Shown piece after piece: positions 12,932 through 24,012 of a DNA stretch of 64,000 nucleotides. The position numbers and the translations under genes were made by a program. This DNA is from a bacterium (GTDB lineage: Bacteria; Verrucomicrobiota; Verrucomicrobiia; Limisphaerales; RI-55). The stretch covers positions 153,416 through 217,415 of the forward strand of contig WGOC01000013.1 of assembly GCA_016124235.1 (NCBI GenBank). The letters are read 5' to 3'. The notes beneath the pieces are model-generated. The model was not told the origin of the DNA, made no database searches, and was given only the letters and a program-made list of their open reading frames with translations. How positions within the stretch are numbered: position 1 is the first letter of the stretch; each line of letters begins with the position of its first letter.

Positions 12932-15900
12932 GTGCGTCCCCATGGTTCAAAACCGAAGAACAGGCGGCGTCGCTGGCTAAAATGGCTCGGCGGGGCGGCC
13001 GTGCTTTGTGCGACGGTGGTGCTCGCACTTCCGCTCTGGTGGCCCTGGGTTCTCGTGCCGGTTTTGCGAAACTTGGGAGTGCGTGTTGGGCATTATGAAC
13101 GCCGCGGAGTCTCGCAACTGGCCCTGAATGACGTGGCCTTCACAAACACCCACGTCGAGGTCACGGCAAAATCACTGGTCATGCAGTTGCCGCAGGAATG
13201 GCTGCGGGATCGTTTTCAATCAGCAACCAACGACGGTGTCCCTGCGCAACTGACGCTCGCCAATTGGCGCGTCCGGGTTCTAGCCAGCAACGCAACGAAT
13301 ACAACGCCATCAACGAACTCCCTCGCCGGCGTACTCGATCAAACCGAATCGATCATCGGTGCGGCACGCCCGTGGGTGCGTCTCGCCAGCGCGACCAATG
13401 GCACGGTAGTGGTGGGCAAACGACAAATCACGTTGCCATCGATCAAACTCACACAAAACGACCTTGCGGTTTCAGCGACCGACGAGGAATCCAATTTGTC
13501 CACTTTGTTGTCGCTGGATTGGGAAGCCACAAATTCATTTCATCTCCGGGCTAGTGCGCCGCACATCGACGCGAGCGCAACGGTGCTCCTTAGTCGCACC
13601 AACCAAACCTGGACGGCCAACGGCAACATACTCTGGCAGACGAATTCGGCGCTGATTCAAGCTGGTCTCGATCGCTCTGACTGGTGGCCGGCAACCATGT
13701 CATTGGTGGCCACCAACGTGAATATCCCGTCCACCACGCTCGGGCTTGCCGGATACCAATCGTTGACGGGCAACTTCGACGTCACGTGGACCAATCGCCA
13801 ATATCATTTCGCGATTCAAGGTGACGCACAGCCGGTACAGGACAATCCCCTGGTGCCTGACATGATTCAAATCGACATCGCGGGCCAGGGCAATCTGGAG
13901 GCTCTGGCGATCGAACGGATGAACATTTCTACGCCCGCCATTCGAGCAAAGCTTTCGGATCCGCTGGCCATTGATTTTTCGGGCAAGATGCTGGTACCGG
14001 AAGCCAAGTTGCAGGTGAACGCCGATCTCGATGAAAACGCCGGACTTCCGTTCAAAGGCCAACTCGATGGTGTGGTCACCGCGCGCCCGGATCGCAACGC
14101 GATGATCAACGCGGGATTTGATGTGCACGTGAATCAGTTTGCCAGCCCGTTGTTGAGCGTCGACCGGGTGAATCTCATGGGTGCGCTGCACTGGCCGCAG
14201 CTGGTCGTTTCGAATGCGTTCTTTTCCTTTCCGAATGCCGGCACATTTCGATTGAACGGAGGGCTCGATTTACTGAGCCGCGCGGCCACGAATGTGAACT
14301 GGACCTTCAATGGGGCCCCGCCCACCAACTTTGTGCCCCAGGGTTTGGCGATTGAATCAGTCGCCGCGCGCGGCCAGGCCTCCGGAACCTGGCCCGACCT
14401 TCAGCAACAGACCGAAGTGCAACTCACACAGCCGACCTGGAACGGCGCGCAAGCGGAAAACCTATCGGTACGATTGGCCGGCAGTACTCGCGGCACGAAC
14501 GATTGGCGATTGCAGGTAAACCGGAGCGACGTTCATTTCGATGGATCGGGGGCGATCAATCTCGGCGCGCTGACGAATTCCGATCTCAGCGCCACCATCA
14601 GCAAATTACAGCTGACGTTAAACACGAACGAATCACTGGCATTGGATCGGGCGGTTGATCTGGAAGTCAATTGGGCGACCAATGCCAACCGGCAGTTCGC
14701 CGCCCAGGTTTCGCCCTTGCGACTGGCCAGCACCAATAAACAATTCGAGCTTTCCGCCGATATCGCGTGGCCGGGTTCAGGCGGTGTGACATTGAGCGCC
14801 ACCAATATCGCGACGAGCGATTTGTCAGCACTTTGGCCACGGGATTGGCCGACCGTTTCGCTGCGTGATCTGGCGCTGACGGCGGGCTGGGATCACAGCC
14901 CATTGATCTTATCCGCGTTGGGCAATGTTTCCTGCGATACACCGCTGGCTGGAAAGGTGGATGCCCATGTCCGAATCAACGCGAACGCCAACGGAATGGA
15001 ATTCTCGCCGGTGAATGTCGGTGTCGATGACCAAGAATTGCTCGCGGTCAGCGGACGGCTACCGATAAAGATCCTGCCTGCCGAAAGCTCCCCGCTGCAA
15101 TGGATTGAAAAAGGAACGATCGACGCCAAGCTCAATTCGGTGGGCGACAATCCGTTTTGGAATCGCCTCGCCGAACGTGGCGGCGTCAGCGTCAGCGGCC
15201 CGGAAATCAAGCTGAACGCCCAAGGCAGCCCGGAAGATTTCCAGGCGCAACTCAATTTAAACGCCGCCTCAATTCATCCATTGCAGCTGACCAATCTGCC
15301 GTCGGATTTTGCGGTCGTCAGCAATCTGCACCTCCACGCTGAAGCGGATCGCCAGATGATTCGACTCACGGACGGTGGGTTTGCGATCGCGGGACAACCA
15401 GGGAAAATCACCGCAGAACTACCCGTGGCGGCCAGTTCATGGGCGGACTGGTTGCGGGCGTTGCGACAGGTGGATTGGAAAAATGCCACCGGCAGCGTTG
15501 CCGTTCCAAAGATTGAAATTGCCGCCCTCACACCATTGACCGGCAGCACCCTGGCCCCGACCGGCCAGGCGGAACTCCAACTCGCGCTCAAAAAGGGCGG
15601 GAACCTGCAGGGCTTCGTCATGGTCACCAATCTGTCCACGAAGCCATTGCCGACCGTCGGCGCGGTTCGTGACATCGCCAGCCGGATCGAGTTCACCGAT
15701 CGCGAGGCCGAGATCAAATCGTTCGTCGCGACGTTGAGCGGTCAACCCGTACGCGCCGGCGGTCGCGCTGAATGGAATACCAAAGGACTGACCAAGGCCG
15801 ACCTGTTCCTGAACGCAACCAATCTTTCGTTGGTGCGCTCGCCGAGTTTATTTTTGCGTGGCGACCTGGACTTACGCCTCGTCGCCGATGGCAAAACCTC

Positions 15901-16672
15901 ACCCACGATCAACGGCGATGTCACCTTGAACAATTCCCTGCTCTTCCAGGACATCGCGCAACTCGTGCAAATCGATCTGCGACGCCCCGAGCGACGACCA
16001 CCATTTTTCAGCGTGCCCAGTCCACCATTCGCCGACTGGCAACTCGACGTTCGCGTGCGCGGACAAAAATTTCTCCGAGTCCTGAGTCCCGTATTCAAGG
16101 GGCAGGTTTCGTCGGGCCTGCAATTGACCGGCACGCTGAAGGAACCGGTGGCCCTGGGCGAAGTCTCGATCGACAAAGGCCAGATGCTTTTTCCGTTCGG
16201 CACGCTCGACGTAACCCACGGCACCGTGCAGTTGACGCGCGAGCATCCGTACCAACCGCAGGTGGACTTTCACGGCCAGGGTCTGAACTTTGGTTACAAC
16301 ATCACTGTCGACGTCACGGGCAATGCCGACGCGCCGAACGTCACTTTCAGTTCGGTTCCGCCGCTTTCCACTCGCGAGATCATGTTGATGCTGACGGCAG
16401 GCGACGTGCCCAGTGGCGCGTACAGCTACTCGAATTTGGACAAGGCCAGCAAACTCGGCTACTTCCTCGGCAAGCAACTGATCACGCAATTGCTCGGCTT
16501 GGACACGGGCGAAGATCGCTTGATCTTCCGAACCGGCGAATACGTGACGGACGACGGCCAGCTGACGTACCGAATCGAATACAAACTCATCAACTGGCTC
16601 TCGATCTTCGGCGAATACACGCGCTTCCGGGACTACAACGGCGGGCTCAAATTCAACATCTATTCCCGGTGA
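12932..16672 (+). CDS. tamB: Translocation and assembly module TamB/AsmA-like protein
   Basis: N-terminal TM anchor, long beta-taco-like region, C-terminal DUF490-like region (SSVPPLSTREIMLML); coupled to an Omp85 gene. Confidence 0.85.
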   Translation: MRPHGSKPKNRRRRWLKWLGGAAVLCATVVLALPLWWPWVLVPVLRNLGVRVGHYERRGVSQLALNDVAFTNTHVEVTAKSLVMQLPQEWLRDRFQSATNDGVPAQLTLANWRVRVLASNATNTTPSTNSLAGVLDQTESIIGAARPWVRLASATNGTVVVGKRQITLPSIKLTQNDLAVSATDEESNLSTLLSLDWEATNSFHLRASAPHIDASATVLLSRTNQTWTANGNILWQTNSALIQAGLDRSDWWPATMSLVATNVNIPSTTLGLAGYQSLTGNFDVTWTNRQYHFAIQGDAQPVQDNPLVPDMIQIDIAGQGNLEALAIERMNISTPAIRAKLSDPLAIDFSGKMLVPEAKLQVNADLDENAGLPFKGQLDGVVTARPDRNAMINAGFDVHVNQFASPLLSVDRVNLMGALHWPQLVVSNAFFSFPNAGTFRLNGGLDLLSRAATNVNWTFNGAPPTNFVPQGLAIESVAARGQASGTWPDLQQQTEVQLTQPTWNGAQAENLSVRLAGSTRGTNDWRLQVNRSDVHFDGSGAINLGALTNSDLSATISKLQLTLNTNESLALDRAVDLEVNWATNANRQFAAQVSPLRLASTNKQFELSADIAWPGSGGVTLSATNIATSDLSALWPRDWPTVSLRDLALTAGWDHSPLILSALGNVSCDTPLAGKVDAHVRINANANGMEFSPVNVGVDDQELLAVSGRLPIKILPAESSPLQWIEKGTIDAKLNSVGDNPFWNRLAERGGVSVSGPEIKLNAQGSPEDFQAQLNLNAASIHPLQLTNLPSDFAVVSNLHLHAEADRQMIRLTDGGFAIAGQPGKITAELPVAASSWADWLRALRQVDWKNATGSVAVPKIEIAALTPLTGSTLAPTGQAELQLALKKGGNLQGFVMVTNLSTKPLPTVGAVRDIASRIEFTDREAEIKSFVATLSGQPVRAGGRAEWNTKGLTKADLFLNATNLSLVRSPSLFLRGDLDLRLVADGKTSPTINGDVTLNNSLLFQDIAQLVQIDLRRPERRPPFFSVPSPPFADWQLDVRVRGQKFLRVLSPVFKGQVSSGLQLTGTLKEPVALGEVSIDKGQMLFPFGTLDVTHGTVQLTREHPYQPQVDFHGQGLNFGYNITVDVTGNADAPNVTFSSVPPLSTREIMLMLTAGDVPSGAYSYSNLDKASKLGYFLGKQLITQLLGLDTGEDRLIFRTGEYVTDDGQLTYRIEYKLINWLSIFGEYTRFRDYNGGLKFNIYSR

Positions 16673-18858
16673 TGCACGCCCGCCAAAGCAAAAGCATCCC
16701 GGTGCCGAAGGTCGCGCGAGATCCGCGCTTACCGAGGCAGGCCGTTCACGTCCTGTGCGGTTTGTGTCTGGCACTCATGTTTCTGATTTTGCCTTCACTC
16801 TGCGTGGGTGAAGACCAGCCGCCGGCCGACGAAAAAAAGGCCGAGCCACCAAAACTCGTCATTCGCGGACTCGGCTTGCTGCAGGATCGCAAATTGAAAC
16901 GCGTGATCCTCCAGGCCTTCCCCGACAACCGCCACGATAAACCGTTCGACGCCAATTTCATCGAAGATTCATTTGTCATCCTGCGTAATCAACTCGTCTC
17001 CGACGGGTATCAGGACGCGATCATTTATGCGCACCTCACCACAACGGACGGCGAGCCGATCAATATCGAATGGGATGGCAGAAAGGACCTCACCGTTCCG
17101 CGTCCGTTAAGCGTGCAGGAGGCGCGTTTCGACGCGGATCGACGGCAGTTGTTTTATTACAACGATTTTACGATCGGTGGTTTGACGGCGATGCCGATTG
17201 ATCAGGCGACCGGTTTCTTTTTCAAGACCGAGATGCTCCTGCGGTTGAAAACCAATCGCCGGTTCAGTCGCCGGCAGTTGAACGATTCCATCGATAATCT
17301 ACGCCAGGAACTCGTCAACCTCGGCTACCGCGATGCGAAAGTGTCCGTTGCGGATTTGCAGGAGAACGTGGCCACCGGCGCCGTGGACGTCGTGGTGCAG
17401 GTCGATCAGGGAAAGCTTTATCGGGTGAACAAAGTGAACGTGGTGGTAAAGGACGATTCGGGTGGCGCGATCGCCCAGTCGTACACCACCGAAACCAACG
17501 CGGTCTGGTCGCCCGCCTGGCAGCAGGATTTCAGCACAACACTCCGCAATGCCCAATACACCAAAGGGCATCCCGACGCCCGCGTGCAGATCAAGCCAAC
17601 CACCAACGAAACCAACAACACGACTACGGTGACTCAGAATCTCGAGGCCACCGTGAATCCCGGGCCGGAGGTCAAACTCGGCGACGTCCGTTTTGAAGGT
17701 CAGCAAAAATCCCGGCTGAGCTGGCTCCAAAAGAAAGGCCGGGTTGAAGGCCCGTTGCTCGACCGACTCAAAGTGGACGCCGCCCGCGAGCGACTTTCAC
17801 GGCAAGGCGTCTTCGACTTTGTGGGGATCCGCTACGAACCCGACACCGGGCCGCAACGCGATGTGGTTTTCGATCTCAACGAAGGCAAACGCATCGATTT
17901 CAGCCTGCTCGCGGGTTATGGCAGTTACGATCAATTCTTTGGCGGCGCGGAGCTGGATCAATACAATCTCTGGGGCATCGGTCACTCGGCTCAATTGCGC
18001 GGCATGATCTCCGTGAAAACGGAAAACGTCGTCTACACCTACAGCATACCCGAGTTCCTTTTTCCCAACCTGAATGTGTTCGCCAACGTTGACGGATTGC
18101 TGCGCAAGGAGCTGACCTTTGAACGACAGGAAATCAAGACAGCGGTCGGTTTGCGCAAGTCGTTTCCGAAGTCCGGTCTGCAGGCGGGCATTCGATACTC
18201 GTATCAGTTTCTCAAGACCCAGGACTCACCCGACCCGACCTTGAACAACGATTTCGCCCGCGTGTCTGCGATCATCCTCGACGGCCAACTCGAGCGTCGC
18301 GACAACCCGCTGGCTCCGCGCAAGGGTTACCGCATCTACGGCAACATCGAGGTCGCCGATCCCGCGATTGCCAGCGACGCGGATTACGAGATGTTGCAGT
18401 TTGGCGCGTCCGGTCATCTGCCATTGCTCCGTGGTTTGGTGTTGCACAGCTCCATTCAGCACGGCGTGATTTTTTCGCCGAACCCAGCCACCGATCTTCC
18501 CTTCAGCAAACGCTTCCTGCCCGGCGGCGAAAATTCCGTGCGTGGCTACCAACGCGGTGGGGCGTCGCCCTACAATTCGATGGGTCAGCAGATCGGCGCG
18601 GAAACCTTTTTGCAATGGAACGTCGAGTTGGAGCAGTTTTTGACTGAACGCTGGTCGGTGGTGGCTTTCCTCGATGGAGCCGGCGTTTCACCCACTCTGG
18701 ATAACTACCCATTCGACGAAGTGCTTTGGTCCGTCGGAGGCGGCCTGCGCTGGAACACGATCATCGGACCGGTGCGTGTGGAGTACGGCTACAATCTGAA
18801 CCGCCGCACATTCGATCCCGAGGGCACACTCCACATCGCGATTGGCTTTCCGTTTTGA
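16672..18858 (+). CDS. tamA: Omp85 (TamA/BamA family) outer-membrane protein
   Basis: POTRA-like repeats, GGENSVRGY, GLRWNTIIGPVRVEYG, terminal GFPF. The ATG overlaps the tamB stop (TGATG). Confidence 0.88.
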   Translation: MHARQSKSIPVPKVARDPRLPRQAVHVLCGLCLALMFLILPSLCVGEDQPPADEKKAEPPKLVIRGLGLLQDRKLKRVILQAFPDNRHDKPFDANFIEDSFVILRNQLVSDGYQDAIIYAHLTTTDGEPINIEWDGRKDLTVPRPLSVQEARFDADRRQLFYYNDFTIGGLTAMPIDQATGFFFKTEMLLRLKTNRRFSRRQLNDSIDNLRQELVNLGYRDAKVSVADLQENVATGAVDVVVQVDQGKLYRVNKVNVVVKDDSGGAIAQSYTTETNAVWSPAWQQDFSTTLRNAQYTKGHPDARVQIKPTTNETNNTTTVTQNLEATVNPGPEVKLGDVRFEGQQKSRLSWLQKKGRVEGPLLDRLKVDAARERLSRQGVFDFVGIRYEPDTGPQRDVVFDLNEGKRIDFSLLAGYGSYDQFFGGAELDQYNLWGIGHSAQLRGMISVKTENVVYTYSIPEFLFPNLNVFANVDGLLRKELTFERQEIKTAVGLRKSFPKSGLQAGIRYSYQFLKTQDSPDPTLNNDFARVSAIILDGQLERRDNPLAPRKGYRIYGNIEVADPAIASDADYEMLQFGASGHLPLLRGLVLHSSIQHGVIFSPNPATDLPFSKRFLPGGENSVRGYQRGGASPYNSMGQQIGAETFLQWNVELEQFLTERWSVVAFLDGAGVSPTLDNYPFDEVLWSVGGGLRWNTIIGPVRVEYGYNLNRRTFDPEGTLHIAIGFPF

Positions 18859-19008
18859 ACTCCAATGGCAACAGTTTGAGAGAGTGCCGGCGTGGGAAGT
18901 TTACAACAGAATCATCAAGTCAACCGAACGGTCTCGTTCAAATTCGCATCGCTCCGATGCTTCTCTGTTCCGCTCAGTCAATTGATGCTATGCCTATTTC
19001 GCTAGCCG
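18736..19008 (+). repeat. Direct repeat copy 1 (tamA last 40 codons + ~150 bp downstream)
   Basis: Aligns with 20135..20404, including the shared GGAAGTTTACAACAGAAT. Confidence 0.9.
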
Positions 19009-19320
19009 TCATCTGTCTGGAATCCATTTCAACTCACCGTCGTCTCTCATCTCTTGTCGCTCAACAACTCCGTGTTCGCGAACTCGAAGGGTGGCTGCAC
19101 GAGTGAAGTGCGTGCCTTCATCGAAGCCGACGTAGATAACCGGGTATCTGCCGTCTGTGCCGTCGAGAAACCAACATGCTCGCTCCCGATTAATGGCATG
19201 TGCACGCTGGAAAGAGAATGAATCTGTGACGGCTCTGTCCACCTCGGTACTGACAATTGGACGAAACGTAGTGCAGCCGAAGCAGAGGCATAGAGCGATG
19301 ATGAATGCCAAGCGACGCAT
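19009..19320 (-). CDS. Small lipoprotein, putative gene cassette
   Basis: MRRLAFIIALCLCFGC lipobox; the ATG lies directly after an attC-like R' box. Confidence 0.7.
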   Translation of the reverse strand: MRRLAFIIALCLCFGCTTFRPIVSTEVDRAVTDSFSFQRAHAINRERACWFLDGTDGRYPVIYVGFDEGTHFTRAATLRVREHGVVERQEMRDDGELKWIPDR

Positions 19321-19323
19321 GAT

Positions 19324-19444
19324 GATTAACGAGTCCACCCATAGCCGCCGGAATCTGGCGTCCGCTGCGACTCGGACGACGGAAGCACCGAGGACTGAGG
19401 CCACTGTGAGGGCGAGCAGCTGTTGGCTCAATGGGGTTTTCGGA
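19324..19444 (-). mobile_element. attC-like site (degenerate)
   Basis: Minus strand TCCGAAA...CCCATTGAGCC...GGCTATGGG...GTTAATC; the arms pair with two bulged bases; 121 bp; sits between two small co-oriented genes. Confidence 0.6.
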
Positions 19445-19448
19445 ATTC

Positions 19449-19745
19449 TTATTGCTTAAATCTCCGCAAGCCCAACTGCGGATTCCGCTGATTGTGCCGC
19501 AACACCCAAACCCTGACATATGTGCCCCGGATATCGTACAGAAAATGATACGGGAAACGATCCAGATTGCAGCGCCGAAGTCCACTCCTGTCAAAATGGA
19601 AGTACTGTGGGTTCGCGGTTGCCTTCCTGATCCCAATTTGAAACTCGGCGAAGAAATCCTCTCCAAGCTGCTCCGACACGCCGTAATACCTGCTCAAGAT
19701 CGCGTCCAAATCCGCCTGCACGCCCTTGTGGAATCTAACGTCCAC
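19449..19745 (-). CDS. RelE/ParE family toxin
   Basis: About 98 aa; LGEDFFAE, RRCNLDRFPYHFLY, VLRHNQRNP motifs; GTG start overlaps the antitoxin end. Confidence 0.85.
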   Translation of the reverse strand: MDVRFHKGVQADLDAILSRYYGVSEQLGEDFFAEFQIGIRKATANPQYFHFDRSGLRRCNLDRFPYHFLYDIRGTYVRVWVLRHNQRNPQLGLRRFKQ

Positions 19746-19947
19746 GGTGCTGAAGCCCGGCAACCAGTTGGTCAAACGTAATCAGCACACCCGGTTCCGC
19801 CTCAGCCTCCCGCATCCGTTGGCCAACTTCATCGTCGGATACGCAGTAAATCGGGGTCTCCAATCCATGGAGGAGCCGGGATGCAAGTGATGCACGCTCC
19901 TCCTCCGATAGCTTTGCGGCCTCAGCAACAATCTCTTCGAGCTTCAT
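19735..19947 (-). CDS. Antitoxin (putative addiction module component, TIGR02574-like)
   Basis: Acidic ~70 aa, AAKLSEEERASLASRLL; directly upstream of and overlapping the toxin. Confidence 0.8.
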   Translation of the reverse strand: MKLEEIVAEAAKLSEEERASLASRLLHGLETPIYCVSDDEVGQRMREAEAEPGVLITFDQLVAGLQHRGR

Positions 19948-19994
19948 AACCACGAAATGTAATCAATCCAAGGGAGAAGCGCCACGAAGTTTTT

Positions 19995-20119
19995 AGTGAA
20001 CGTCAGGCTTACCGACCGACCCAGCCAACGGGCACTGCCGGTCAACCCAAGGTCCGATCAGTCGTGAGTCTCCAATCGGCATCACGGGCCGGCGGATTTG
20101 CTAAAGCAACCGGTTCGCG
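19995..20119 (-). mobile_element. attC-like site
   Basis: Minus strand CGCGAAC...GGTCGGTAAGCCTGAC GTTCACT; the terminal AAC/GTT cores are complementary; 125 bp. Confidence 0.65.
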
Positions 20120-20134
20120 GTTCTTTAGTTGATG

Positions 20135-20257
20135 GGCGGCGGCTTGCGGTGGAACACGATCATCGGGCCCGTGCGCGTGGAATATGGTTACAACCTGAAC
20201 CGCCGCACGTTCGATCCCGAGGGCACGCTGCACATCGCCATTGGCTTTCCGTTCTGA
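20135..20257 (+). pseudogene. Orphan duplicate of the tamA 3' end (40 codons + stop)
   Basis: Translates to GGGLRWNTIIGPVRVEYGYNLNRRTFDPEGTLHIAIGFPF*, identical to the TamA C-terminus; 15 of 123 nt differ, all synonymous. Confidence 0.92.
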
Positions 20258-20258
20258 T

Positions 20259-20404
20259 CGTCAACGGCAAAGGCATGGGCTTTCGGTTGTGCTGGAAGTT
20301 TACAACAGAATTACCAGGTCAATCCACTGGACTCGTTTAACCTCGGATGGCTTCGACGCTCATTCTCCACTCAGTCGGTCAATGCGTTGGCCGTTTCGTT
20401 CGGC
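20259..20404 (-). mobile_element. Heavily decayed attC-like site (homologous to 18860..19008)
   Basis: Begins GCCGAAC just after the TAA of the 20406..20777 gene and ends GTTGACG next to the tamA-tail stop; internal pairing is weak. Confidence 0.4.
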
Positions 20405-20405
20405 A

Positions 20406-20777
20406 TTACTGTTTGTGAAATACCAACTCATTGGTCTTGCCGTAAGCACTTAGTACTACCAATCGCTGAACATCGATACTCACGACCTTGTTGCTCTCCA
20501 CACCAAACGGTTCGCCTGAGGCAGCCGCATTCGTGATACTCGAAATGATCATCCCCTGCTTGACCTGCCAAACTCCGACGAAAGTCAGGGAATTGGTGAG
20601 ATTCACCGTGAACTTGGATACACAGGTGCCGTCCGCTTTGTGCTCGATAATCTTTGAGGGATCCCAATCCGCCACCCAGGTTCCCACAAGTTGCCGACGT
20701 ATTTGCGCGTCGCTTTGCCAATTACTGCAACCGCTCAGACCCGCGGCCAGTACGGCAACTGCCAAGATAAGTTTCAC
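20406..20777 (-). CDS. Small lipoprotein, putative gene cassette
   Basis: MKLILAVAVLAAGLSGC lipobox; LVGTW lipocalin-like start; flanked by attC-like sites. Confidence 0.75.
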   Translation of the reverse strand: MKLILAVAVLAAGLSGCSNWQSDAQIRRQLVGTWVADWDPSKIIEHKADGTCVSKFTVNLTNSLTFVGVWQVKQGMIISSITNAAASGEPFGVESNKVVSIDVQRLVVLSAYGKTNELVFHKQ

Positions 20778-20793
20778 GATCGTTTCTTGCTAT

Positions 20794-20919
20794 GCCGAGT
20801 GACCCGGTTCACCGACCGCCTACGGAAGTCGCCGTCAGCCGCGAATTCACTGTCCAGAGAACCCTACGCATCGAATCAGACGTGCGCGGCGGCAGTTCGT
20901 GTGCATCGGATTATTCGGC
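20794..20919 (-). mobile_element. attC-like site
   Basis: Minus strand GCCGAAT AATCCGATGCAC...GGTCGGTGAACCGGGTC ACTCGGC; the upstream gene's stop overlaps R''; 126 bp. Confidence 0.65.
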
Positions 20920-21390
20920 CCTTTTTGTTCTGAGTGGAACCTTCTTAAGAACGTAGCGGCTCGGATAGCTGGCAAAAGTCTTCGGTAGAGCGGCGTTGTC
21001 GGTGCCGTACGAAGCCAGCGTGAACGTCCCATCTTCAATCTTGAAGATAGCCCCTACCACTTCGCCTTTGGCAACACCGTTAGCACTTTCTTTGATTGTG
21101 GCGTGCAGCTGATTTGGGTCCGTGCCTGTCGAAAGAGTGAAGTTCGTATCAAACCAAAAATCCTTGTCCCGATGGAAATGGAGAGAATTGCCAGTGATCG
21201 TGATGGTGATTTTCTTATGCGACGTATCGCCGACATCGAACCCCTCCCATGTTCCTTGAAGAAGTTGCAGTTCCGAAGTAGTCGTTCGATCGCCCCCACA
21301 ATTGGCGTCGACGGTGAGTTGTTCGGCAGATTGAGCGATGAAACACGTGCTGAGGCAGACGATTGTGATGATCAATCGAAAACGCTTCAT
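20911..21390 (-). CDS. TIGR03067-like secreted protein, putative gene cassette
   Basis: Signal peptide MKRFRLII...; ELQLLQGTW, AIFKIEDGTFTLA and PKTFAS motifs. Confidence 0.75.
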   Translation of the reverse strand: MKRFRLIITIVCLSTCFIAQSAEQLTVDANCGGDRTTTSELQLLQGTWEGFDVGDTSHKKITITITGNSLHFHRDKDFWFDTNFTLSTGTDPNQLHATIKESANGVAKGEVVGAIFKIEDGTFTLASYGTDNAALPKTFASYPSRYVLKKVPLRTKRAE

Positions 21391-21480
21391 ACCTTCAGTG
21401 TTTAGGCGGCTAGCCTTTGGAGCTTCGGAGGGAGTTTTCAAGACTTAGCAAGTTGCACGTCACCACGGCGCGAACGCAAA

Positions 21481-21609
21481 AGCTGACGGCGAGATCAGAC
21501 ACTGGCTCGGAAGCCGTGGTGACGATACTCAGTTGATGGTTCAAGTTTCACGACAAGGTAACGAATCGCGCCGGCATAAGCCAGTTGTCCTGGATCGATT
21601 TTGTTAGCC
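21481..21609 (-). mobile_element. attC-like site (best preserved)
   Basis: Minus strand GGCTAAC (contains the TAA stop)...GATCCAGGACAACTGGCT pairs with AGCCAGTGTCTGATC with three extrahelical bases...GTCAGCT; 129 bp. Confidence 0.75.
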
Positions 21610-21987
21610 CTTCAGCTCATAGTAGTCCTCTCCATAACTTGGCAAATCTAGTGGTGGTGACTCCAAAGGCCAACCGAATGATTTTAGGCATCCACGAGCT
21701 AAGTGTCGGATAGAAATCCAATGAGGAGAGCTAACCAAAGCCTCCTCTCGCCAGTGCTCAACGTTTGTCGGTCCGGAAAAAGATGCAAACGCTGCATGCA
21801 ACGCATCTAAGCTCGCCGTCTGCTCAGGTGTGAGTGCGACACCAGTGGCGACAAGATGCCGTTTGGCTTGGCAAAATCTCTCGGGTAATTCGGCGGGCGG
21901 CTGCAACCAAACTTTTAAGAGACGTTTCTGGAAACCAGCAGACTGTGCCAGCGCTTGGAGAGAGTATTTCAGCGCGTCGGCATTCAT
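21604..21987 (-). CDS. Hypothetical protein, putative gene cassette
   Basis: 127-aa ORF with lower GC; preceded by TTAGCCC, complementary to its own downstream GGGCTAAC. Confidence 0.7.
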   Translation of the reverse strand: MNADALKYSLQALAQSAGFQKRLLKVWLQPPAELPERFCQAKRHLVATGVALTPEQTASLDALHAAFASFSGPTNVEHWREEALVSSPHWISIRHLARGCLKSFGWPLESPPLDLPSYGEDYYELKG

Positions 21988-22349
21988 GGGGCTAAAGTAT
22001 TAATAACCTACATTCAACAGCGGTTATCCCGGAAAGAGCGTGGCGACTCAACGACTGGTTGATTCCCTCTCTCCGATTTCATTTTTTGAGGGCTACGCTT
22101 CCTCTTACTTTCTGTCAACCAAAGCCTTGCGAGCCTGCCACAAGCCGTTGCATTCACATCATCATCCGGACCAACTCAGAGAACTCGCTTTCGCCGCGGC
22201 GTGGGCAATACACGCGTTCGACAGATGCACAGGTTTTCCAATCGGATTTGTGACTCCTTCGCGTGCCAGCCGCCACGCGTTCCGGTTGATTCAATTCCAA
22301 GGGAATCGTCTTTCGTCACACGTTCGCCACGCGAATCAATTTCGAAAAT

Positions 22350-22559
22350 TCAGCGACGCTTGACCGAAGCGTTCCAAGATTGCACACCCGCGAGGAGCCC
22401 GGCCGCCAGACCAATCCAGCCACGCCAGTCCATGAGGATTGAAACGGAACCGCTCTCGGGCCGTGAAATGAGTGAGGTCACAAAGGTCACCAGAAAGCTC
22501 ACCACAAAAAAGACGAAGACGAAGGAAATAACACCGACCAGATAACGGACCCATCGCAT
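22350..22559 (-). CDS. Small two-TM membrane protein
   Basis: Two hydrophobic segments; purine-rich GGGAAGGAA upstream. Confidence 0.55.
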   Translation of the reverse strand: MRWVRYLVGVISFVFVFFVVSFLVTFVTSLISRPESGSVSILMDWRGWIGLAAGLLAGVQSWNASVKRR

Positions 22560-22613
22560 GAAGGGCGTTGTTCCTTCCCCGTAATTAAAGTCAACGGCTA
22601 TGATGGAGCGCCG

Positions 22614-22994
22614 TCAGTCCCACTGTTCAACGCATTGCACCCCGCGATCGCCGTTCATCCAAACCCAGCCGACCTCGCGCGGGTTTTCGCCTTCTGTCCA
22701 GGCGGTGGCGTCCAGGCCGCGGCGCAGGAGGTTCAACAATTCCTGCTCCACATGATCAAAATGTATGCGCTTGATCGTGTGGCTGCCGTGTTCACTCCTC
22801 CATGTGAGCGTGCAATAAACCGGCCGCGTGGCCCCCGGTGGTGGGGTCATTTTCTCGCGTCGCAAACCGCGCTTGTCTGACACAAGCACTTTGCGAAACC
22901 ACGATTGAACCTGATTCCGAGGCATAACAATTTTCGCAATAGATAACCCGGCGGCGGCAAATATCAAGTCAGCACCAGCCGGTCGAGTCAGCAC
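22614..22994 (-). CDS. Hypothetical protein (start uncertain)
   Basis: 126-aa ORF co-oriented with and downstream of miaA; no recognised motif. Confidence 0.45.
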   Translation of the reverse strand: MLTRPAGADLIFAAAGLSIAKIVMPRNQVQSWFRKVLVSDKRGLRREKMTPPPGATRPVYCTLTWRSEHGSHTIKRIHFDHVEQELLNLLRRGLDATAWTEGENPREVGWVWMNGDRGVQCVEQWD

Positions 22995-23055
22995 TGAATT
23001 GCCACCAATTCACATAATATTGTCCGTCGCACCCGAAATCTTACACACATTTTTC

Positions 23056-24012
23056 TCAGGCTTGCCGGACTTGACCCAACAATGAAGCCACGACCGTAGC
23101 AGTTGAGCTGCCTGCTTCCAGATTCACCCAGGTCGGCAGCATTTGGTGACGCAACCAGGTCAACTGGCGCCGGGCAAACTGCCACGTCCGAGTTTTGACC
23201 AACTGAATCGTTTCCGGCAACGGGCGCTCGCCCTGCAAATGCTCCACAACTTGCCGATAACCAATGGCTTGCATCGCGGTTTTGTTTCCCGCCAGGCCGC
23301 GATTCAACAGCGCTTTTACTTCGTCGACCAACCCGGCCGAGAACATCTCATCGACTCGTAAATCGATCCGCGCTCGCAGGTCCGCCGGTTCGCGCGTGAA
23401 GGCGATTACGTGTCCCGTTCCGAGCCGAGCTTTCGCCCACGTGGCCTGCTGCTCAGAATAGGGCCGACCGGTCAGGCGGATCACTTCCAGCGCGCGAATA
23501 ACCCGTCGCGGGTTTTGTTGGTCGATTCGCGCGAACGTCTCCGGATCCGTTTGTTTGAGTTCCGCCAGCAATTCGCCCAAGGGCGCCGATTCCAATCGGG
23601 CGCGCAGCTCGGCATCGGCCGGCGGCGAGTGGCCAATTCCGAAAAGCAATGCCTTCAAGTAAAAACCCGTTCCACCACAGTAAATTGGAATTCGCTCACG
23701 GCTGCGAATCGCTGCGTCGGCCGCGTTGGCAAGCTCAACAAAACGGGCCGCGTCAAAGGATTCTTCAAGTCCGGTCACGTCGATCAAATGATGCGGCACT
23801 CGCGCGCGTTCGGCGGCCGAAGGTTTGGCCGTTCCAATGTCCAGCCCGCGATAAACCTGCATTGAATCCACCGAAATGATTTCGCCGCCCAGCTGCTCCG
23901 CCAGTTCGATGGCGATCGCCGATTTTCCGACCGCCGTCGGGCCGGTGAGGTACCAGGCTTCGGGCGCTTTGGCGGTGCCACCGAATGGGCGCGATGAGGG
24001 CGAAACGGTCAT
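23056..24012 (-). CDS. miaA: tRNA dimethylallyltransferase
   Basis: GPTAVGKS, SVDSMQVYRGLDIGTAKP, GGTGFY, AIGYRQ, FARRQLTW. Confidence 0.97.
   Translation of the reverse strand: MTVSPSSRPFGGTAKAPEAWYLTGPTAVGKSAIAIELAEQLGGEIISVDSMQVYRGLDIGTAKPSAAERARVPHHLIDVTGLEESFDAARFVELANAADAAIRSRERIPIYCGGTGFYLKALLFGIGHSPPADAELRARLESAPLGELLAELKQTDPETFARIDQQNPRRVIRALEVIRLTGRPYSEQQATWAKARLGTGHVIAFTREPADLRARIDLRVDEMFSAGLVDEVKALLNRGLAGNKTAMQAIGYRQVVEHLQGERPLPETIQLVKTRTWQFARRQLTWLRHQMLPTWVNLEAGSSTATVVASLLGQVRQA

Follow-up and report, generated by a model that had tools for sequence, protein, structure and literature searches.

Introduction

How does the end of a conserved gene come to stand twice in succession, each time before a different small gene, while the gene itself stays intact? 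The question is raised by contig WGOC01000013.1 of a verrucomicrobial genome of the order Limisphaerales (GenBank assembly GCA_016124235.1), a metagenome bin of 3.9 Mb that is 56% complete and comprises 47 contigs. Within the window, the whole stretch of 64,000 nt that was analyzed here (positions 153,416 to 217,415 of the contig), a 727-codon gene for an Omp85/POTRA protein directly follows a TamB-domain gene, and a second copy of its last 40 codons lies downstream, in a row of short minus-strand genes and hairpins of the attC type known from integrons. The arrangement is read here as the probable product of two diverged lineages, whose gene ends (each a tail, a 3' untranslated region (3' UTR) and a terminal attC site) would have been stacked by one illegitimate joint and homologous recombination, without an integrase. 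An Omp85 barrel and POTRA domains encoded beside tamB are what marks a TamA protein (Pfam Omp85, POTRA, and TamB); because the protein scores under the NCBIfam cut-offs for both TamA and BamA (96 versus 625 bits for the TamA equivalog), "tamA-like" is the safe name for the gene, given by context.

Two Ends of One Gene

Nucleotides 18736-18858, which close the tamA-like gene (the resident tail, c1), and 20135-20257 (the displaced tail, c2) both translate to GGGLRWNTIIGPVRVEYGYNLNRRTFDPEGTLHIAIGFPF followed by a stop codon, in register and at a spacing of exactly 1399 nt. A first-pass annotation, made by a model from the letters alone, had claimed that the two encode the same 40 residues with 15 of 123 nt differing, all silently, and a scripted comparison bears this out: 108 of the 123 positions match, and the differences comprise 14 third-position changes and one at a first position (CTG/TTG). 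With about 30.3 synonymous and 89.7 non-synonymous sites in the tail, the chance that 15 of 15 random changes would be silent is roughly 1e-9; the non-synonymous divergence (dN) is 0, against a raw synonymous divergence (dS) of about 0.5. Because all 15 differences are synonymous, almost all of the divergence would have accrued while both copies were coding, rather than after an old duplication in place, and both tails were presumably working gene ends until recently, as the same annotation had supposed. These two are the only copies of the tail in the source genome; no third, older relic was found there, the next best nhmmer match having an E value of 0.025.

Upstream of the 40 codons, a weak in-register match joins 18721-18735 to 20120-20134 (9/15, P ~0.005), where the displaced copy reads GTT CTT TAG TTG ATG, with TAG TTG ATG standing opposite TGG TCC GTC in the tamA-like gene. 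This 9/15 match fits either microhomology or a decayed in-register stretch of c2, such that the exact position of the joint is not placeable; left of 20120, homology to the tamA-like gene is absent (9/45 in register). The TAG TTG ATG of the displaced copy also amounts to a stop and then two possible in-frame starts (20126-20257, plus strand). The resulting 42-codon open reading frame (ORF; 20129-20257) would encode just the last two barrel strands, and no obvious ribosome-binding site was seen for it.

Downstream of the stop codons, homology between the copies continues for about 150 nt, as the annotation had also noted. It comprises 16 of 36 nt, an identical 18-mer (18895-18912 and 20294-20311; two matches in the window versus 0.03 expected), 10 of 16 nt and then 24 of 33 nt in the ungapped start of the attC-like part (~73%); the 18-mer is also the longest exact word common to both copies. 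The homology stops at the stop codons of two minus-strand lipoprotein genes, lipoA (19009-19320) and lipoB (20406-20777), which are unrelated, with no mutual blastp match at E<=1. Because tail, 3' UTR and attC site are homologous in exact register and are then followed by two unrelated genes, the two copies are best taken, on this sequence evidence, as orthologous gene ends. The downstream regions are referred to below as D1 (behind c1) and D2 (behind c2), and their first 70 nt as D1-left and D2-left (Table 1).

An Empty Site in a Related Strain

A second arrangement of the locus comes from run X3, which stems from an unrelated study and habitat label. A 1077-nt contig of this run matches 18406-18840 with 9 differences and then 20240-20879 with 32 differences and 2 gaps, skipping exactly 1399 nt; 14 nt fit either side, which puts the joint within 18841-18854, the last identical 14-mer of the tail. 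This strain, ~2-5% diverged, carries the gene with a resident-type tail, then D2, then lipoB; the c2 tail is absent from the contig, and no X3 contig was found over 18974-20179. In the stretch before the joint, X3 departs from c1 at 2 of the 14 discriminating sites among the differences listed (at 18810 it has the base of c2, at 18738 a base found in neither tail), with at most one further difference beyond those listed. A third study (run X4) contributes a contig that passes from a c1-type tail into D1 (18806-18945, 4 differences); the X3 and X4 tails are both c1-type and ~2-3% diverged.

The 1399-bp block, which holds lipoA, a toxin-antitoxin pair and c2, is a strain-level indel. Because X3 carries both the c1-type tail and D2-lipoB, it shows that both are native to the species-level group. 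The suggestion of a chimera of two lineages' gene ends is upheld by these strains, the c1-type tail being joined to D2 and lipoB in X3 and to D1 in X4. Likewise, the proposal that blocks are exchanged without an integrase fits the position of the X3 joint, which lies inside the tail rather than at the R' box of an attC site.

A Family of attC-Type Hairpins

No signal came from folding the complete 150-nt downstream regions as DNA (z of 0.66, 0.90, -0.58, and 0.02). The distal 80 nt of both, as found in DNA searches of 21 relatives, recur in other genomes and contexts, and a covariance model (R1) built from four copies, run on 61 genomes of the order, matched 21 times in 11 of them. The family so defined has the layout GCCTAAC, 7 nt, a 13-bp stem, a widely variable loop, the return stem, 3 nt and GTTGAAC GAGCCCG, with matched lengths from 65 to 113 nt. 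Among 24 distinct sequences, whose alignment was fitted to the model and hence favours structure, 89.2% of stem cells pair versus 28-40% with slid partners, compensatory changes occur in 13 of 13 stem pairs, and none of 500 shuffles reaches the observed scores. The GAGCCCG that follows the R' box is conserved as well, which is unusual for attC sites. Carriers hold one to four copies per genome, often near contig ends (G003, G008, G009, G019, G022, G040, G043, G048, G051 and G059 among them; loci L089, L114, and L116-L132).

The end boxes of attC sites follow the consensus RYYYAAC ... GTTRRRY, to which the family's GCCTAAC ... GTTGAAC may be compared. In the window, the copy behind lipoB (attC_B) has GCCGAAC ... 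GTTAAAC, one position off, while the copy behind lipoA (attC_A) has GGCTAGC ... TTTGAAC, in which the AAC and GTT triplets are both lost; non-standard pairs number 4 of 17 in attC_A and 6 of 17 in attC_B. A strict search for box pairs by regular expression found none in 18700-23200. A box scan that also requires AAC-GTT pairing returned two canonical sites beside the genome's own integrase on contig C19 and missed a family member on contig C66 of genome G009, hence it is conservative. From these boxes and pairs, the attC sites of the window appear decayed. Each lies 1 nt after the stop codon of its lipoprotein gene and on the same (minus) strand.

The family is also linked to integron integrases. 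IntI scores above the cut-off in four of five checked genomes that hold family members, and the source genome itself encodes IntI at C19:2661-3581 (locus L110; TIGR02249, 377.5 bits versus a cut-off of 265). The two sites on C19, at 330-442 and 1746-1855, are canonical (GCCTAAC...GTTAGAC and GTCTAAC...GTTAGGC); C19:1-3600 makes up a complete integron start, with an array that runs off the start of the contig. In G009, the family member on C66 (14414-14492) is 2.9 kb from IntI (17389-18228) on the same strand; across 14414-18228, the attC site lies beyond the 3' end of the integrase gene, likewise on the same strand, a layout that presumably belongs to the "inverted integrase" group of integrons.

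The distal halves of the downstream regions thus appear, by covariation and by this linkage, to be members of an attC-type hairpin family, and the attC and cassette wording of the first-pass annotation seems justified. Less survives of its reading of the junction near 20134, which it took to leave just a stub (...ATCAACTAA) of the cassette owning the next attC: the hairpin at 20040-20134 is weak and branched, with the ends CATCAAC ... GTTGACC, is matched by neither of the models R1 and R2, and overlaps the decayed in-register tamA codons (20120-20134). Because attC-type sites are present and an integrase is absent from the window, the stretch from 18859 to ~22.1 kb is best described as an attC-site cluster that has no integrase (CALIN), with all genes on the minus strand and the last attC bordering on the 70-nt 3' untranslated stretch behind the tamA-like gene. 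No PF00589 tyrosine recombinase occurs in the window; on the contig, the nearest is >150 kb away.

A Proposed Origin of the Stacked Ends

Taken together, the duplicated tail, the empty site and the hairpins would be accounted for as follows. Two diverged lineages would each have carried the series "tamA tail, 70-nt 3' UTR, terminal attC," with a terminal cassette behind it that differed between the two. DNA of one lineage would then have entered the other, with one crossover being homologous and the second joint being illegitimate, linking spacer X (20119/20134) to the interior of tamA 40-45 codons before its stop, either by homology-facilitated illegitimate recombination or by an equivalent two-step route via a circle. 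The outcome would be one intact gene ending in c1, and c2 would be left as a dead fragment 1399 nt downstream, before its own 3' UTR, attC site and cassette. As direct repeats, the tails would subsequently let homologous recombination inside the tail add the 1399-bp block to strains or remove it from them, a step for which an integrase is not needed. The series is held to be fairly probable as a whole; the divergence of the lineages is evident in the 15 silent differences (raw dS ~0.5), and a displaced copy of the conserved end does lie downstream of the presumed new module, the arrangement termed C-terminal displacement in other systems.

The illegitimate joint is the part of the series that would have founded the locus. 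In every scenario it would be illegitimate, because there is microhomology at most, and from its sequence the joint at 20120 looks like one of the microhomology type. One-step homology-facilitated illegitimate recombination would be the simplest route; a circle with a crossover in the tail needs two steps and fits equally. X3 is compatible with D1...c2 having been inserted into an ancestor like X3, and also with X3 having later lost by deletion what lay between its tails; the presence of a toxin-antitoxin pair in the block (by weak Pfam matches) would speak mildly against easy loss.

The proposed check, to look for repeated tails elsewhere and to compare each tail with relatives, yielded no recurrence among 301 genomes of the order and no close relative that sides with one tail. 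Over their C-terminal 352 residues, the closest orthologs are 77%, 77%, and 64% identical. A metagenome scan with the same 352 residues returned three loci, the best at 77% identity, which is too distant for these loci to serve as pointers to the tail that matches the gene body. The closest relatives keep the tamB-tamA pair, and downstream of it nothing matches the window. A displaced tail was found in none of 41 relatives. Short or second matches to the tail in four further genomes (G057, G150, G154, and G196) were rejected as displaced tails, since each is a contig end, apart from that in G057, which is a strain-duplicate contig whose tail is nucleotide-identical. In three of these genomes (G150, G196, and G154; loci L079-L084), contigs break within the last 100 codons of the tamA-like gene, which by estimate is about the number expected by chance. 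With no other genome found to repeat the tail among these 41 relatives and 301 genomes, the further suggestion that a core-gene tail generally serves as an anchor for exchange gains no support: what was found is a single event, and a general exchange system is not demonstrated.

Several points weigh against the proposed origin. The tails of the three orthologs match c1 at 102, 99, and 97 of 123 nt and c2 at 100, 99, and 96, nearly the same distance, and thus do not discriminate the native pairing of tail and downstream region. Judged by the 77%-identical orthologs, where 5-6 residue changes accompany 21-24 nt changes, the absence of any residue change beside 15 silent ones is a little below prediction. 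Among the 301 genomes, 82 of which matched the tail query at E<=1e-6, no second displaced tail was found. The founding event itself is unobserved, and one-ended recombination, a circle integrated via a tail crossover, or a later deletion in X3 fit equally. Lastly, the X3 and X4 contigs are of low depth (2.5-5.3), contigs being better at showing presence than absence; the c1 type of the X4 tail was read among the differences listed; and the two runs that contain the full arrangement, X1 and X2, may be the source of the window, hence no independent support.

Other Explanations

Of the other explanations, the one that survives best, unlikely as it is, sees in the block what is left of a site-specific integrative element with the 3' end of the tamA-like gene as its target and a replacement end of its own, as phage 21 and e14 do in the icd gene of E. 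coli. A direct repeat of a 3' end with silent-only differences is the classic footprint of such elements, a toxin-antitoxin pair is typical mobile cargo, and presence of the block varies among strains. Against this, there is no recombinase in the 1399-bp block, whose three ORFs are a lipoprotein gene and a toxin-antitoxin pair, nor in the rest of the window, the nearest PF00589 gene being the one >150 kb off. Around the X3 joint, homology reaches ~140 nt one way and ~150 nt the other, which does not resemble a short core site. The target, moreover, shows no sign of repeated use, with the source genome the only one among the 301 to have a displaced tail, and the 24 matches of the 18-mer in 596 Gb of representative genomes all fall in unrelated taxa, in a number that looks like chance.

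Movement of the block as one or two cassettes by an integron integrase, whether between two attC sites or between an attC and a genome site, is less likely still. It would draw on the fact that two attC-type sites, both of one family and exactly 1399 nt apart, border the block, and that an integron integrase is encoded in the source genome; next to the joint, at 20128-20130, stands a GTT, and cassette insertion at GWT genome sites is described as possible in the excerpted text of Loot et al. (10.1101/2022.09.11.507474). Nonetheless, because the X3 joint is not at an R' box, integrase-mediated exchange is disfavoured: the empty site of X3 keeps D2-left beside a c1-type tail, with the joint in the coding tail, whereas an event between two attC sites would have left D1-left in X3. 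Both sites in the window are, in addition, decayed by the box and pairing counts given above (attC_A without AAC and GTT), and no TT-RRRY box was seen at the left end of c1.

A metagenomic mis-assembly joining two strains, which the first-pass annotation had named as the finding that could overturn its reading, is very improbable. The source is an incomplete and fragmented bin, and related strains with the other arrangement exist. An independently built Logan contig of 76,851 nt nevertheless spans 17500-21500 with 0 differences in each of the two runs X1 and X2, and no contig with the 1399 nt skipped was found in these source runs. Because the copies have no common word >18 nt and the sequence to the left of 20120 does not resemble tamA, an assembler of the k=31/de Bruijn type would have no shared path along which to switch strains. 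X4 supports the c1-D1 junction independently, and the assembly of the region is sound.

Tandem duplication of the gene end in place, with later divergence, would explain direct repeats in exact register and is hardly credible, as it is contradicted by the substitution pattern (a silent copy would be expected to gain ~3 non-synonymous changes per synonymous change, and 0 of 15 were found) and by the unrelated genes behind the two copies.

Other Features of the Cluster

The features of the locus are collected in Table 1. The cluster contains two further attC-like elements, both on the minus strand: element (b), 3' of the toxin gene, and element (c), which overlaps the stop codon of orf127. The copy of element (b) on contig C22 of the source genome has the ends ACCCAAC ... 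GTTGGGC, and these two sequences of the kind were found. Element (c) belongs to a second family of six sequences (among them L100, L102, L103, L104, and L101 on the genome's own contig C42), the consensus of which is predicted to form a long hairpin of 30 pairs, 6 with compensatory changes, and a 5' box of the GGCTAAC type.

Table 1. Position, strand and supporting evidence of the features at the tamA-like locus (window coordinates).
Feature	Position	Strand	Evidence or remark
TamB-domain gene	12932..16672	+	Pfam PF04357 TamB, E 1.2e-20; upstream of Omp85 gene
Omp85/POTRA gene (tamA-like)	16675..18858	+	Pfam Omp85 E 1.9e-32, POTRA E 9.3e-17; start codon approximate
Resident tail c1	18721..18858	+	Last 40 codons and stop at 18736-18858; weak homology to c2 from 18721
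Displaced tail c2	20120..20257	+	40 codons and stop at 20135-20257; 15 silent differences
D1-left, 70-nt 3' untranslated stretch	18859..18928		Holds 18-mer 18895-18912
attC_A, apparently decayed attC-type hairpin 3' of lipoA	18929..19007	-	Model R2, 70.2 bits, E 7e-18
lipoA, small predicted lipoprotein	19009..19320	-	ORF/translation; signal peptide ending ...CLCFGC
attC-like element (b), 3' of toxin-antitoxin pair	19321..19448	-	78% identical copy at start of own contig C22
ParE/RelE-like toxin gene (weak match)	19449..19775	-	Pfam ParE_toxin E 0.004, under cut-off
Antitoxin-like gene, addiction module component (weak match)	19735..19953	-	Pfam PF09720 E 0.0045, under cut-off
Spacer X, upstream of antitoxin gene	19954..20119		Right end is the proposed illegitimate joint to the displaced tail
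D2-left, 70-nt counterpart of D1-left	20258..20327		18-mer at 20294-20311; contiguous with c1-type tail in X3
attC_B, apparently decayed attC-type hairpin 3' of lipoB	20328..20404	-	Model R2, 65.7 bits, E 1.4e-16
lipoB, small predicted lipoprotein	20406..20777	-	...AAGLSGC lipobox; in X3 at ~5% divergence
lipoC, small secreted protein or lipoprotein, TIGR03067 domain	20911..21390	-	NCBIfam TIGR03067, E 2.1e-9
attC-like element (c), second family, 3' of orf127	21478..21606	-	Five homologous copies in G002, G004 and own C42
orf127, cassette-like gene of unknown function	21604..21987	-	ORF/translation

Neither lipoA nor orf127 matched a family in Pfam or NCBIfam, and the toxin gene had no match in NCBIfam. 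The TIGR03067 match of lipoC, at 37.6 bits, is under the cut-off of 40.15, and homologous DNA occurs in G003 and G009. In the source runs, a second contig of 855 nt, at similar or higher depth, matches lipoC either side of a 95-nt diverged patch (21014-21215), which points to either a paralogue of the TIGR03067-domain gene or its allele in a second strain. Just upstream of the orf127 start, at 21996-22070 on the minus strand, stands a conserved motif, TCTTTCCGGGATAACC...GGTTATTAA, that includes a 7-bp hairpin; further copies (L100, L105, L106, and L107) occur in G001, G002, and the genome's own contig C41, and the motif could be an operator or promoter element travelling with the cassette. Searches found no Rfam match in 18000-23500 and no tRNA genes in the window, and scans for promoter-like and terminator-like sequences remained at background level.

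Comparison With Known Systems

The closest precedent is the C-terminal displacement of rhs loci and of stacked effector-immunity arrays of type VI secretion systems (T6SSs), which the excerpted text of Kirchberger et al. (2017, PMC5361080) attributes to homology-facilitated illegitimate recombination, with the rhs work being that of Jackson et al. (2009), as cited there. In those arrays, as that text describes them, an incoming module is spliced in via a conserved anchor and the former 3' part is left as an orphan farther downstream, with one homologous and one illegitimate junction and no dedicated recombinase; the proposed history of the present locus would be alike in each of these respects. 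Unlike in the systems so described, it is a housekeeping Omp85 assembly gene rather than a toxin gene whose end is duplicated here, the variable cargo lies past the stop codon, on the opposite strand and in the form of integron-type cassettes, and a single displacement is visible, with no third relic.

As a cluster, the locus resembles the attC clusters without an integrase that have been named CALINs or SALINs (Cury et al., 2016, PMC4889954; Loot et al., 10.1101/2022.09.11.507474). In common with what the excerpted texts of these sources describe, it consists of short same-strand genes, each followed by an attC-type hairpin, with a toxin-antitoxin pair among the cassettes and an integrase elsewhere in the genome and none nearby. 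It differs from the clusters so described in that its attC sites appear decayed and that the block would be gained or lost through homology in a flanking core gene instead of through attC.

Elements of the icd type, such as phage 21 and e14, likewise leave a gene intact and its end duplicated with silent differences only. The present locus is unlike them in having no integrase, homology on both sides of the joint and no recurrence in other genomes.

Significance

The mechanism proposed here would be one of a known class in a new setting, and as a single case its value is illustrative rather than that of a new principle. It would extend C-terminal displacement, as seen in rhs and T6SS toxin loci, to the end of a conserved Omp85 assembly gene. 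A broader generalization is doubtful and is offered as such: a core-gene tail with its 3' UTR and terminal attC could act as a portable array end, a homology handle that travels with cassette blocks into related recipients and allows whole blocks to be stacked at a chromosomal cluster's edge, or exchanged there, without an integrase. If this were true, it would provide a general route for the growth and content exchange of CALINs, with each event leaving a displaced core-gene tail as a datable scar.

How integrase-less attC clusters originate and how their content changes is an open point in integron biology. To this point the locus contributes one clean, datable case, in which a cassette block would have moved through homology in a flanking essential gene, not through attC, and for which a natural empty-site strain is available for comparison.

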